Assembly (NCBI RefSeq): GCF_050920415.1
Contig: NZ_CP169309.1
Source: Escherichia coli
Lineage (GTDB): Bacteria > Pseudomonadota > Gammaproteobacteria > Enterobacterales > Enterobacteriaceae
Direction: 5' to 3' (one strand)
DNA length: 64,000 nucleotides
This document shows positions 15,150 through 20,056 of this stretch, one piece after another. The notes beneath the pieces were generated by a model that was not told the DNA's origin, did not search any database, and saw only the letters and a program-made list of their open reading frames with translations. A program made the position numbers and the translations under genes. How positions within the stretch are numbered: the first letter of the stretch is position 1; each line of letters opens with the position of its first letter.

Positions 15150-15160
15150 TATAATATAGC
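15150..15160. repeat. Left copy of the 11-bp direct repeat tataatatagc (putative attL core)
   Basis: Exact 11-bp match to 47440..47450; host-like sequence to the left, AT-rich foreign sequence to the right. Confidence 0.6.
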
Positions 15161-15409
15161 TTTGGACCCCAATAAAAACCAAATGAAAACAATTAATTAT
15201 GAAAGAAATATCATTGTAATGTCGCAAGAATGTCGCAGAATTTTGAATTTTACATCAAACAGAAATCTTACATAAGTCGTCGAAAAGGAAAACTACCAAT
15301 ATCTTTTCGGTGTTTCCTTTCCCCAAATGGAATTTTTCCTGTTATGCTAATATTCGTTTTAAGGTGTTGATAACTAACATTACACAAAGCAATTAGAACG
15401 GATACTAAC

Positions 15410-16984
15410 ATGGCTAAAAACGCAAAAAACGAGAAACCAAAAAAGTTAGCTTATAGAATAAAAAGTATTAATATTGAAAAATTAAAAGGTATAAATAACT
15501 GCCCTATTTCCTTCCCAGCAGACAGGTCTGTAACTGCTATAATGGGAATTAATGGTTCAGGTAAATCAACAATATTGCACGCTCTATCATGTGTTTTCAA
15601 ACCCAAAGAAAAATCATCCCAAGAAAATAATAGATTTTCTGACTTCTTTACCCCTCACAATGAAAATAACTGGCAAGATAGTAAATTCTCAGTAAAATTT
15701 CGAGCGGGAGAGATAAAAAACAATGGTAATAAAGTCTTTTTTGAAGAAATAGATAATGAAGAAAAGAAAGATATTGTTTATGGCAAGGATAAAAGGTGGA
15801 AACCAGTTTACGCAAGAAGACTTGAAAGAGAATCTATATATATAGGATTACAAAATCTTGCAACGTTAGCTGACAATACAGGAGCATCAAGATACTCAGA
15901 ATATGAAAGAGTAGATATTTATGATAAAGATATAAAGAATCAAATGATATTAGCTCTGAATAAAATCTTAGATGCAGATTACAACGATTTGTTTGAATGC
16001 CGCACCATTAAGGGAAACAAAAAATTCATAGGCATGGTTAAAAACGGCATTGAGTATACAGAACATACTATGGGTGCTGGAGAAAAGAGAGTCTTTGAGA
16101 TAGTTAAAAATGTTTATAATGGAAAGTTAATGCCCAATGGTTTTCTAATCATTGATGAAATAGATGTTTTGCTACATGAAAGAGCTTTTCATGAATTAAT
16201 TAATTTTCTTATCGAAGAAAGCAAGTCTATGTGTTTTGAGGTTGTTTTCACAACACATAGAGAATCCATAATAAAGTTTAAAAATCAAATCAATATAGTA
16301 AGTATATGGAACATAGGGAATGGAATAGAGGCTTATCCCGGCGTTTCTGCGGATGCTCTTCGACAGATATCCAATGTAGAACCTGATATGGTCAATGTGT
16401 TTGTAGAAGACAACTTAGCAAAAACAGCACTAAATATTTTAGTTGAAAGTGAAGGTATGAATGAACAAGTTGATATCTCGCTTTTTGGTTCGGCTGAGAA
16501 TTCAGCTGTAATTTTGTCAGGACTTAAATTAACTGGCAAACGAATTGATACAAGCCTGGCAATTTTAGACGGTGATTACTATATTACCCTCCCTGAAAAG
16601 ACCAAAATGGTTGATAGAGTGTTATCTGGAACAGATAAAAAAGTAGAAAAAAAAGAAGTCTTATCAAGAATATTCCAATTCAATTTAGATGTGACTGACG
16701 TCAAAGGCTCTCCAGAAAAAAACCATCGTGATTGGTTTGAATCTATAGACGAAAACAATATTTCGGAAAATGATAAGACAATGTTTCTTAACCTGAAAAA
16801 ACATTCTACAAGTATTGGTGCTTTAACTGATTATCATGAATATTATCCAGAGTTAGCTCGAAGGTCAAAATTAGATAATATTGAGTACAAAGTTTTGAAT
16901 TATATTAGTAAGTATAGTAATAAATGGGATTTTTACATAAATGATATTAGAAATGAAATAAAAAAAGCAATTGCAGCGATCTAA
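15410..16984 (+). CDS. ABC-type (AAA_21/AAA_15-like) ATPase fused to a C-terminal Toprim/DUF4435-like domain; OLD-family or fused-PARIS-like candidate defence protein
   Basis: Walker A GINGSGKST, signature-like GAGEKR, Walker B LIIDEIDVLLHE, H-loop TTH; C-terminal half has VFVEDN and ILDGDY resembling Toprim E and DxD; about 30 percent GC; own terminator. Confidence 0.6.
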   Translation: MAKNAKNEKPKKLAYRIKSINIEKLKGINNCPISFPADRSVTAIMGINGSGKSTILHALSCVFKPKEKSSQENNRFSDFFTPHNENNWQDSKFSVKFRAGEIKNNGNKVFFEEIDNEEKKDIVYGKDKRWKPVYARRLERESIYIGLQNLATLADNTGASRYSEYERVDIYDKDIKNQMILALNKILDADYNDLFECRTIKGNKKFIGMVKNGIEYTEHTMGAGEKRVFEIVKNVYNGKLMPNGFLIIDEIDVLLHERAFHELINFLIEESKSMCFEVVFTTHRESIIKFKNQINIVSIWNIGNGIEAYPGVSADALRQISNVEPDMVNVFVEDNLAKTALNILVESEGMNEQVDISLFGSAENSAVILSGLKLTGKRIDTSLAILDGDYYITLPEKTKMVDRVLSGTDKKVEKKEVLSRIFQFNLDVTDVKGSPEKNHRDWFESIDENNISENDKTMFLNLKKHSTSIGALTDYHEYYPELARRSKLDNIEYKVLNYISKYSNKWDFYINDIRNEIKKAIAAI

Positions 16985-16991
16985 ACCTCAT

Positions 16992-17020
16992 AAAAGGCGT
17001 AATTTATACGCCTTTTTTTA
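16992..17020. terminator. Rho-independent terminator after the ATPase gene
   Basis: aaaggcgta...tacgccttt stem followed by a run of T. Confidence 0.75.
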
Positions 17021-17181
17021 AGGTTTAAATTATAGTTGCTAATTTCTACTCTTTGTTCCCTCTGTTCGTGCACGTTTCAGGTAGTAAGCTCTCCATCGAA
17101 CCATAGAGATTGAACGCTTTGATTTTTTTTTACATACTGTCTGAAGCTCATTTACTAAGTATTGATAGTCAGGATGACAAC

Positions 17182-17808
17182 ATGACCTCCTACGATGAAC
17201 TTAAAGAATGCATCCGCCTTGAAGTCATTGGCCATGACAAATCCTTTTCATGGCGTAAAGCGTTACTTCGTACCCGACGCAACCAGAAGAAGCACTTCCT
17301 GTTCTGGTGGCGTATCGCTTCATGGCTCTATGGCCAGAATAGTAAGTTCAAAAAGCGCATTGCCCGCAGAATTGAAAACCGCCTCAAGTACCTGCATAGC
17401 GTTGATATTTCGCTGTCATGCAAAATCGGCAAGGGTTTAAACATTGCTCATCTGAACGGTATTGTCATTACTGACAATTGCGTGATTGGTGATTTCGCCG
17501 ACCTGAAGCAAGGCATCACCATAGGGTTACGCACCGACAGTGCCGACGCGATGATAGTCATTGGTGATCATGTTGATATTGGCTGTAATTCGTCCATTCT
17601 GGGCGGCAAGGTTACGATCGGAAACAATGTCACCATTGGGGCGCATTCACTGGTACTTCAGAACATCCCCAGCGACACCGTTTATAAAAACAAGATCACG
17701 CCGGTGTATACATCCAAACTACCGCAGCAGGAATATCAGGAAAATCGGCCTTTTGTCACTGGCAAGGCGATAAAAGAAGCGTCCCGTTCCGCAGAAGCGG
17801 TGCTGTAA
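17182..17808 (+). CDS. Hexapeptide-repeat (left-handed beta-helix) acetyltransferase, serine/sugar O-acetyltransferase-like
   Basis: Tandem hexapeptide repeats (GIVITDNCVIGD, VIGDHVDIGCNSSILGGKVTIGNNVTIGAHSLV); start chosen at ATG 17182 with AGGA RBS, alternative start at 17110; AT-rich. Confidence 0.65.
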   Translation: MTSYDELKECIRLEVIGHDKSFSWRKALLRTRRNQKKHFLFWWRIASWLYGQNSKFKKRIARRIENRLKYLHSVDISLSCKIGKGLNIAHLNGIVITDNCVIGDFADLKQGITIGLRTDSADAMIVIGDHVDIGCNSSILGGKVTIGNNVTIGAHSLVLQNIPSDTVYKNKITPVYTSKLPQQEYQENRPFVTGKAIKEASRSAEAVL

Positions 17809-18186: not shown

Positions 18187-18230
18187 CGCAGCGCCAGCGC
18201 AGCGCCAGCGCAGCGCCAGCGCAGCGCCAT
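18187..18230. repeat. Four tandem copies of an 11-bp GC-rich unit (cgcagcgccag)
   Basis: Read directly: cgcagcgccag x3 then cgcagcgccat, in a noncoding spacer between the cargo and the last phage gene. Confidence 0.8.
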
Positions 18231-18352
18231 GCGCACGATCTTTTATGTGTGTTGCGTTGGGTTAATTTGTTGCCTGAAGTGCTGAGGGCGCGTTCTGCTG
18301 CGTCTGAGGAAGGGTATGAAAAAGCCCGCATTATGCGGGCGTGTTGTCATGG

Positions 18353-20056
18353 TCAGGCAATTATATTCTGGTACTTGCTCCGGGTCTGCCCTGCTTTCGT
18401 CGCCGTCTGTACGAACGCGTCAGCATTGGTTGGCGTCCCAACAGTGGGGTGTGAATGGTTCGCGCATTGCTGCGCCAGCTCTGCCAGTAAATCAATGGTA
18501 TCCAGCATCATGGTCAGGGCGTTGATACTCTCGCTGCCAATATGGACAGTTGCCCCCATGACCTGCTGACCGCCAGCGGCCACTGATTTACGCAGTGCGG
18601 CAATCTTCTCTGTCAGGCTTTCGCCAACCTCCACGGCTACAGCACCGCCCACTTTAGTGGACTGCTGTCCTGCTATGTCCGTTTCTTCGTTTCCTTCAAT
18701 ACTGGCCAGCCTGTTTCCTTTCACCGCCTGGCTATAATCACCGGCGCTTACCTGCTGGATGGCTCCGGCCAGCAGTGTGGCGGTTCCCAGTACCGTGGTT
18801 TTATCCGTGGCTTTCACCGTGGTTTCACGGCTGACCAGTTCGCGCTGTTCCGTATCGGCTTTTACGGTTCGCGCCATCGATGTTTCGCTGATGGTCTGAT
18901 CGGTCTGCCTTACCCAGTCGCCCGCCTGAGTCACCCTCTGGGATACTTCTTCCCGCTGCTGCTGCAACTGTTCACCGGGTTTAACGTCCGGCAGACTGGT
19001 GCCATCCGGTAGCGTCTGCCTGATAAAAGGTTTATCCGGTCTGCCTCCCGTGAATGCAACCTCAACCAGCGTCCCTTCTGGCGGAAACTGAAACATACCT
19101 GAATCATTCCCGGCCATTGGTACCGGCAGCGGCACCGCTGAATAAACAGGCGTCTGATTGTCCGGGTTTCCGTCTGCGTCAAGCAGCTGCACGTCCACGG
19201 CGTAACGTGGCCGGAAGGGATCGGCAAAGTTACCGCTTTTTACCGGCTCTGAATGCGCCACAACTCTGGCCATCTTTGGCAAATGAAGCCCGGATGCCAG
19301 TTCCGGGTAATGGCTTTCAATCTGCCGTTGCGCCGGTGTTTTCTGCAAAGGTTTACCCGTTGCGCGGTTTCTCGGCGTCCATGTGATCGCCATCGCGTCA
19401 TTAGTCAGGTGAACTTTAGTCACGCGTTCACCGTTCATCTCCACCCCTGGCCGCATAGTCTGGATCACTGGTAATGTCACAGAGTTACCGCCAGCAGCCC
19501 CCTGGCTGAACTCTGACGGGATTTCTACGGGGCGACCGGCAAATAATGACTTTTCTGCGCCGCCGACGTAAAGCGAACCATCAGGCAACTGGTACCAGAT
19601 GTAATCCTGGATACTGAACGCCCTTCCCAGATTGTTCAGCAACTGATAACCAGTACCGTTATGGGTAAAATGTGGGATGGGGGTATCGCTGTACTGTGCA
19701 TCAGGCACACTGACCGTGATCCCGCTGTTTTCTTCCAGCCAGCTGGCAACCTCGCGTAAAGTTGGATGTTGAAATGAGCACGGCCACATCCTTTCAAATA
19801 CACCTGCCAGCTCACGAATGAACAGACGCTGAAAACCGTTTTCAGCGGGCTGCGATCGCTCCACATACCCCGTAAACCAGCGCAAAAGCAGATCGGTATA
19901 CCCCACATCCAGCCGCACCAGTTTTCCGGTGTAATCGGTTGTTGTCTCTGCGGTGATGAAGCCCCGGCCGCAGCTGTTCAGCTCCAGTACCAGGCTGGCA
20001 TCCACCAGGTGAACTTCATCAGTTGAAAGGTAAAGGCGTTTTACTGGTTTCATCAT
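18353..20056 (-). CDS. Phage protein, last gene of the tail operon; possibly baseplate hub / late-control-D-like (uncertain)
   Basis: 567-aa ORF translationally coupled to the upstream gene, phage-like GC content; function inferred from position only. Confidence 0.35.
   Translation of the reverse strand: MMKPVKRLYLSTDEVHLVDASLVLELNSCGRGFITAETTTDYTGKLVRLDVGYTDLLLRWFTGYVERSQPAENGFQRLFIRELAGVFERMWPCSFQHPTLREVASWLEENSGITVSVPDAQYSDTPIPHFTHNGTGYQLLNNLGRAFSIQDYIWYQLPDGSLYVGGAEKSLFAGRPVEIPSEFSQGAAGGNSVTLPVIQTMRPGVEMNGERVTKVHLTNDAMAITWTPRNRATGKPLQKTPAQRQIESHYPELASGLHLPKMARVVAHSEPVKSGNFADPFRPRYAVDVQLLDADGNPDNQTPVYSAVPLPVPMAGNDSGMFQFPPEGTLVEVAFTGGRPDKPFIRQTLPDGTSLPDVKPGEQLQQQREEVSQRVTQAGDWVRQTDQTISETSMARTVKADTEQRELVSRETTVKATDKTTVLGTATLLAGAIQQVSAGDYSQAVKGNRLASIEGNEETDIAGQQSTKVGGAVAVEVGESLTEKIAALRKSVAAGGQQVMGATVHIGSESINALTMMLDTIDLLAELAQQCANHSHPTVGTPTNADAFVQTATKAGQTRSKYQNIIA

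Follow-up and report, generated by a model that had tools for sequence, protein, structure and literature searches.

A gene near one end of an Escherichia coli prophage carries the label serine O-acetyltransferase, both in RefSeq and in the records of related phages, and it raises three questions: where the gene starts, whether the label is correct, and what such an enzyme would do for a temperate phage. We addressed these questions in a 64,000-nucleotide stretch of E. coli DNA (contig NZ_CP169309.1), referred to here as the window, for which the original prediction had pointed to a hexapeptide acetyltransferase with an ambiguous start and an N-terminal domain outside the left-handed beta-helix (LbH). 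The gene is an object of an ordinary kind, a prophage moron with an LbH acetyltransferase whose database name is probably wrong.

The window carries the E. coli gene order ybiT-ldtB-ybiR-mntR ... mntS-opgE, interrupted by a P2-like prophage (Peduoviridae, Quadragintavirus-like) of about 32 kb in the mntR-mntS intergenic region. Its extent follows from 11-bp repeats at 15150 and 47440 and from the end of chromosomal similarity, given that similarity to E. coli genomes with other cargo at the site stops at 15158-15163. The features that frame the prophage and separate the acetyltransferase gene from its upstream neighbor are as follows.

15150..15160, no strand: left attachment core TATAATATAGC, 11 bp, an exact repeat at the prophage boundary
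47440..47450, no strand: right attachment core TATAATATAGC, the exact repeat, just past the integrase gene
15218 and 15229: paired AATGTCGC repeats of the left end, inside the left att
47324 and 47335: paired AATGTCGC repeats of the right end, inside the right att
16993..17019, + strand: intrinsic terminator of the upstream ATPase gene, a 10-bp hairpin followed by U7 (-15.7 kcal/mol, z = -5.3)

No 12-bp att repeat was found, and the core is 11 bp. The AATGTCGC repeats are probably arm-type sites of the integrase. The flank from the integrase to mntS matches E. coli 160-11H1 (locus L002, NZ_AP031375), and the prophage genes match Quadragintavirus phages, e.g., Escherichia phage ESSI2_ev015. The acetyltransferase gene lies 2 kb inside the left prophage end, between att and the end of the tail/baseplate operon, whose last gene (18353-20056, phrog_2258 "baseplate protein") is convergent with it. 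Because the terminator after the ATPase gene insulates it, the acetyltransferase gene is its own transcription unit. It therefore has the placement of a lysogenic-conversion gene (within a prophage, near att and tail fibers, in its own transcription unit) and is a self-contained accessory gene, or moron, carried as cargo of the P2-like prophage. The spacer between the acetyltransferase and baseplate genes holds a tandem 11-mer, CGCAGCGCCAG, at 18187-18235 (4.4 copies, 97% matches), near whose position a hypothetical gene of 333 nt (WP_000787654.1), missing from the window, is present in the relatives H1 and H4.

The start of the gene had been considered ambiguous, with a preference for an ATG at 17182 over the beginning of the mechanical open reading frame. 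That frame runs from 17110 to 17808 on the + strand (232 amino acids, TTG start), and both the in-frame ATG and the AGGA upstream of it (17171-17174) are present as described, apart from a trivial difference in the spacer, which is 7 nt rather than 9 nt. The annotation that results from our analysis is the following.

17182..17808, + strand: acetyltransferase coding sequence, 208 amino acids plus stop (PGAP, homologue starts, phrog_2154 match, dN/dS)
17171..17174, + strand: ribosome-binding site AGGA, 7 nt before the ATG, inside the block GTCAGGATGAC
17110..17181, + strand: non-coding leader, wrongly included in the mechanical open reading frame

The PGAP annotation of NZ_OZ547246, the E. coli genome closest to the window, has this same coding sequence of 627 nt, which corresponds to the ATG at 17182. 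Most homologues in an alignment of 20 proteins (19 homologues, down to 37% identity) start at the same Met, and the 24-residue N-terminal extension of the mechanical frame has a counterpart in none of the 19. The block GTCAGGATGAC that contains the AGGA is invariant in four relatives, and the sequence further upstream diverges; within the 72 nt upstream of the ATG, relative H1 has a frame-breaking 1-nt deletion and relative H2 is unrelated. A start at the TTG at 17110 is ruled out by the unconserved extension and the broken frame in H1. Given the homologue starts, the invariant AGGA block, and the indels that break the extension in relatives, the start is the ATG at 17182, as had been preferred, and the ambiguity is resolved with this as the only supported start. 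The leader contains TTGAAC (17110-17115), a T9 run (17123-17131), and CATACT (17133-17138). By inspection, the two hexamers agree with 8 of 12 promoter positions, which is under the threshold of the promoter scan, and the TTG at 17110 may be part of this weak -35-like TTGAAC. The T9 run, between the -35-like and -10-like hexamers, is TTTTGTTT in H1 and T7 in ESSI2_ev015; it could tune or switch expression, although it is short for slipped-strand variation and merely suggestive.

The AlphaFold2 model of the protein, built on a 52-sequence alignment, has a mean pLDDT of 89 and divides the chain into three parts, listed here with the codons of the two catalytic residues.

17182..17397, + strand: N-terminal helical domain, residues 1-72 (AlphaFold2 helices; family profile against CysE)
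17398..17694, + strand: LbH catalytic domain, residues 73-171 (Pfam Hexapep, AlphaFold2 strands)
17695..17805, + strand: C-terminal 37-residue tail (low pLDDT, dN/dS of about 1, absent from shorter homologues)
17404-17406, + strand: Asp75 codon (alignment to CysE catalytic positions)
17449-17451, + strand: catalytic His90 codon (alignment to CysE catalytic positions)

Helices are predicted at residues 4-16, 24-33, 35-50, and 55-71, and the beta-helix strands begin at residue 73, where hexapeptide repeats (Pfam PF00132) assign the protein to the LbH acyltransferase superfamily. The description of roughly 80 helical and basic N-terminal residues ahead of the beta-helix holds, given that the model places four helices between residues 4 and 71 and that the first 72 residues carry a net +13 (pI 10.8), compared with a family median charge of +12; the peptide quoted in support, KALLRTRRNQKKHFLFWWRIASWLYGQ, is residues 26-52 counted from the ATG. 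The suggestion of a new, separate substrate-recognition domain does not hold. Positions 5-179 of the family profile align with CysE structures from about residue 73 of the H. influenzae serine acetyltransferase (SAT), and by this alignment the N-domain is a homologue of the latter half of the helical domain with which CysE begins; the ~70 residues that come first in CysE are without counterpart. At the other end, the last 30 residues have a pLDDT of 52-67, the tail is missing from ~180-residue homologues in other genera, and it is predicted to be disordered and evolves without constraint. Compared with three relatives (23-32 nucleotide differences), dN/dS is about 0.07-0.11 over residues 1-171, about 1 or higher over residues 172-208, and 0.16-0.22 for the whole gene. 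The purifying selection over residues 1-171 indicates that the gene is not a chance open reading frame. There is no predicted membrane segment. Taken from sequence and model, the product is a soluble predicted acetyltransferase with a CysE fold that combines half of the CysE helical domain, an LbH, and a dispensable tail and that keeps His90 and Asp75.

The likeness to CysE (EC 2.3.1.30; TIGR01172, Pfam SATase_N plus Hexapep) lies in the helical N-domain packed on an LbH and in the catalytic His/Asp, and it makes the annotated function worth weighing. If the label were right, the product would be a serine O-acetyltransferase in the true sense, insensitive to feedback, and the gene would serve the lysogen as an auxiliary metabolic gene by increasing its supply of O-acetylserine and cysteine. 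Beyond the RefSeq and phage annotations, this reading has in its favor that the protein finds its best matches, in sequence and in structure, among CysE enzymes and that the catalytic pair is intact, with E. coli H158/D143 corresponding to His90/Asp75 here and the catalytic His and its Asp/Glu partner found in 45/52 and 40/52 family members, respectively. The acceptor side of the active site argues the other way. In published CysE structures, D92, D157, R192, and H193 of the E. coli enzyme bind serine. When the family was aligned with H. influenzae and N. gonorrhoeae SAT segments, the window protein had S, A, A, and M at the equivalent positions, and only 0-3 of the 52 family members kept the CysE residues there. 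The motif test discriminates, given that true CysE proteins further down the same hit list retain RDPA, DH, and KRHP, one of them also ending in the CysK-binding Ile. The CysK-binding tail of CysE ends in Ile, whereas the window protein ends in a neutrally evolving AVL, and the full eight-helix N-domain that provides the CysE hexamer interface is incomplete here, the hexamerization helices being missing. An equation of RTRRN with the CysE RTRDP is ruled out, as the profile alignment sets the CysE Asp-Pro opposite the Ser-Phe of FSW. The protein scores 82.5 bits against a cut-off of 210.65 for CysE TIGR01172 and 61.3 against 397 for PRK11132. Full-length orthology to a housekeeping serine acetyltransferase, which the original prediction had set against itself, is ruled out by these scores and the missing serine-binding residues, and we consider a true serine acetyltransferase carried as prophage cargo improbable. 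The loss of the serine-binding residues makes a non-serine acceptor most likely, in keeping with the earlier alternative of an uncharacterized enzyme with another substrate, and the database name is, on these alignments, probably wrong for this gene.

A CysE- or WcaB-type layout had also been proposed, and the CysE fold and CysE-homologous N-domain bear this out, with scores under the cut-offs of every named subfamily. WcaB of colanic acid synthesis (TIGR04016) and EpsC (NF041874) resemble the window protein in being short (~160-190 residues), with a small helical N terminus and an LbH; both are without the serine-binding motif and acetylate glycans. Among the NCBIfam models, EpsC scores highest (89.1 bits versus a cut-off of 150), whereas WcaB reaches 65.9 bits (cut-off 194.65). 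The window protein differs from both in its own conserved motif, LKEC..EV.G...FSW...FWWR, in a much more basic N-domain, and in lying outside colanic acid and EPS clusters, with no wca or eps genes around it and prophage genes as its neighbors. Its full-length match is to phrog_2154 (E 1.4e-55; residues 4-175 against profile positions 6-177 of 185), which PHROGs lists as "unknown function," and it is 93-96% identical to ESSI2 phage proteins. The phrog_2154 genes of ESSI2_ev015/ev129, phiNP, and the P1-like phage-plasmid JL22 belong to the same family, occupy the same position near att or tail fibers, and show no structural difference. The literature on a characterized function of the gene yielded annotations and statements of unknown role and nothing else: the phiNP gene is listed merely as a "fitness" gene (PMC6456863), and the reason for its presence in JL22 is given as unknown (PMC9603915).

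The company that the gene keeps in other genomes offers a clue to the acceptor. Relatives turn up on at least 243 contigs of IMG/VR, and the best 80 of these, reduced to 33 clusters at 90% identity, were used to analyze context by neighbor clustering and PHROG annotation. A tail-fiber, fiber-assembly, or baseplate gene is the immediate neighbor in 16/33 clusters and lies within three genes in 22/33, the clusters not being phylogenetically independent. For a random gene, adjacency to tail-fiber or baseplate genes of ~10-15% would be expected, a rough estimate rather than a computed one. The same gene adjoins int/attP in ESSI2_ev015 and a tail-fiber assembly gene in phiNP, and the fiber-adjacent position recurs in P2-like phages, phiNP, P1-like phage-plasmids, and a Salmonella remnant. 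Published accounts place the gene in the same position in P1-like phage-plasmids (PMC9603915) and a more distant homologue after the receptor-binding genes of S. thermophilus 987 phages (PMC6213268). This adjacency may reflect insertion opportunity rather than function, with att- and fiber-proximal slots serving as general cargo hotspots.

Three kinds of locus bring the family together with lipopolysaccharide (LPS) enzymes. In a Photorhabdus prophage (L078, with three loci like it), the next gene after the homologue, 36 nt away on the same strand, is of the WaaZ family (TIGR04437, E 5.9e-22; Pfam PF27901), and the chromosomal waa core clusters of Xenorhabdus, Buttiauxella, and others contain relatives of this WaaZ-like gene; a search of the phage collection for the gene did not find it. 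One chromosomal homologue has yejM/lapC on one side and a WaaI-like GT8 gene on the other, with dinI alongside, and in the Salmonella prophage remnant a GtrC-like gene (PF19528) is near the homologue. An LPS target is thus suggested through guilt by association in 3 loci out of dozens (WaaZ-like, WaaI-like, and GtrC-like). At L078 itself (4944-6484, IMG/VR), the homologue pairs with the captured LPS-core gene of the WaaZ family in what appears to be a cassette of two genes, divergent from the tail-fiber genes.

We hypothesize that the gene is a prophage moron for lysogenic conversion, encoding an O-acetyltransferase for an LPS core sugar or another envelope glycan, and we give this reading about an even chance. 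The enzyme would form a trimer and use acetyl-CoA to O-acetylate a non-serine acceptor, most probably an LPS core sugar or other envelope glycan, during glycan assembly at the cytoplasmic face of the inner membrane. Given that it is predicted to be soluble, it would act only on core or O-unit intermediates at that face, and its very basic, aromatic-rich N-domain could dock on the anionic, lipid-linked acceptor. The outcome would be lysogenic conversion in which an altered surface receptor excludes phages whose fibers bind LPS, an exclusion that can be likened to that of the NeuO, Oac, and Gtr modules. The LPS core is the receptor used by P1 and P2. In temperate phages, the gtrABC and Oac (Sf6/D3) genes lie close to att, and their expression in the lysogen alters the LPS receptor; the GtrC-like gene near the Salmonella homologue is a point of likeness. 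The enzymes of these systems are integral membrane proteins acting in the periplasm, whereas the window protein is predicted to be soluble and would act on cytoplasmic intermediates. NeuO, the polysialic-acid O-acetyltransferase of E. coli K1 prophage CUS-3 (PDB 3JQY), belongs to a different LbH subfamily (NodL/LacA-like), with no sequence match to the acetyltransferase at E<=0.001, and its gene has phase-variable heptanucleotide repeats, whereas TRF found no such repeats in the acetyltransferase gene.

The glycan reading has to be weighed against proposals that draw on the cargo around the gene. The closest of these neighbors is an ATPase gene at 15410-16984 (+, 524 amino acids) that matches PADLOC HEC-04 (3.1e-33), ATPase-Toprim_I-B, and phrog_3940 and is a candidate defense gene. 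In both the window and NZ_OZ547246 the two genes are same-strand neighbors, which might suggest that ATPase and acetyltransferase are the first and second parts of one system. This pair occurs in 1 of 5,426 complete E. coli genomes, and the acetyltransferase is also found without the ATPase (ESSI2_ev015, H2, H3, H4, phiNP, and P1-like elements). The PADLOC models that the ATPase matches are single-protein models, with none for the acetyltransferase. The strong terminator between the genes, the gap in GC content (31.5% for the ATPase gene versus 47.7%), and the start of similarity to ESSI2_ev015 only at 17081, which makes the ATPase a separate insertion in the slot between att and the acetyltransferase, together rule out an operon with the ATPase, and we leave a joint system no more than a very slight probability.

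A more serious alternative is that the acetyltransferase modifies something inside the cell other than a glycan (a protein of phage or host, a nucleotide-like signal, or a xenobiotic) and acts in anti-phage defense or counter-defense from within a hotspot. The slot on the att side does hold defense candidates, which also counts against the glycan reading: the HEC-04/ATPase-Toprim gene here, a reverse-transcriptase-domain gene in H2, and HicAB in phiNP. A PDC-S49 candidate lies at the other prophage end, and nucleic acid or nucleotides would be equally plausible ligands for the very basic N-domain. A further point against a glycan acceptor is that homologues as close as 82-87% identity are also orphan chromosomal genes in Citrobacter and related genera, e.g., between copA and cueR. 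Set against an intracellular target, the PADLOC-DB 2.0 defense models gave no match to the acetyltransferase at E<=0.01, which rules out a known defense protein, and the paper on P2 hotspots makes no mention of the acetyltransferase. Its closest sequence relatives are polysaccharide or serine O-acetyltransferases, and the three loci described above pair it with LPS enzymes rather than defense genes. We regard an intracellular target as unlikely, though well short of negligible, and continue to favor lysogenic conversion by glycan O-acetylation.

Two further observations concern this cargo. In E. coli 160-11H1 (L002, 6453-7217), a reverse-transcriptase-domain gene on the opposite strand takes the ATPase slot, next to the same acetyltransferase allele; the prophage there has decayed, and its portal and replication genes are truncated. 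In the window, a 497-residue gene between the cI repressor and the integrase (44772-46265, +) matches PADLOC PDC-S49 (3.4e-106); it is a second cargo insertion in the prophage, given that int directly follows cI in ESSI2_ev015.

A broader proposal, which we put forward more tentatively and hold at somewhat less than an even chance, is that phrog_2154 and its relatives are an unrecognized, soluble, CysE-derived class of lysogenic-conversion enzymes that temperate phages (P2-like, P1-like, and others) encode beside their genes for receptor binding. Working on the cytoplasmic side, members of such a class would add O-acetyl groups to the LPS core or to some other conserved envelope glycan, which would keep LPS-binding phages from superinfecting the lysogen, and the phage label "serine acetyltransferase" would be systematically wrong. 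The family is common in temperate phages of enterobacteria, including P1-like phage-plasmids and P2-like prophages, where it is routinely labeled serine acetyltransferase and discussed as a metabolic "fitness" gene; the lost serine-binding residues and the company of receptor-binding and, sometimes, LPS-core genes argue against this. If our proposal is correct, a soluble route acting in the cytoplasm would be added to the known routes of phage seroconversion by membrane enzymes, which would matter both for predicting the host range of phages and for phage therapy directed at lysogens. If the proposed role is wrong, the gene is an ordinary uncharacterized moron.

The gene also varies in ways that bear on its history. 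The exact allele is present in 3/5,426 complete E. coli genomes, and part of it is common to a second, divergent allele.

17617..17808, + strand: 3' segment common to the second, divergent allele (breakpoint near 17617; L003 and L004 matches)

E. coli strains EH09-18-41 (L003) and 1919D3 (L004) match the window only from 17617 on, together with the downstream DNA, and the 5' two-thirds of their gene encodes a P0025-type protein ~48% identical to the window protein. On this comparison, the acetyltransferase gene is a mosaic with a recombination breakpoint near 17617. The second allele (L003 5241-6014, L004 5241-5945) has a longer, different N terminus and is annotated at 234-257 amino acids. 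Allele and fiber do not covary, given that the two alleles, ~48% identical, occur with tail genes that are ~94% identical. Outside phages, Enterobacteriaceae bacterium BIT-l23 (L009, 6001-7697) carries three consecutive CysE-like hexapeptide paralogues of 181, 193, and 195 amino acids in a non-phage chromosomal context.
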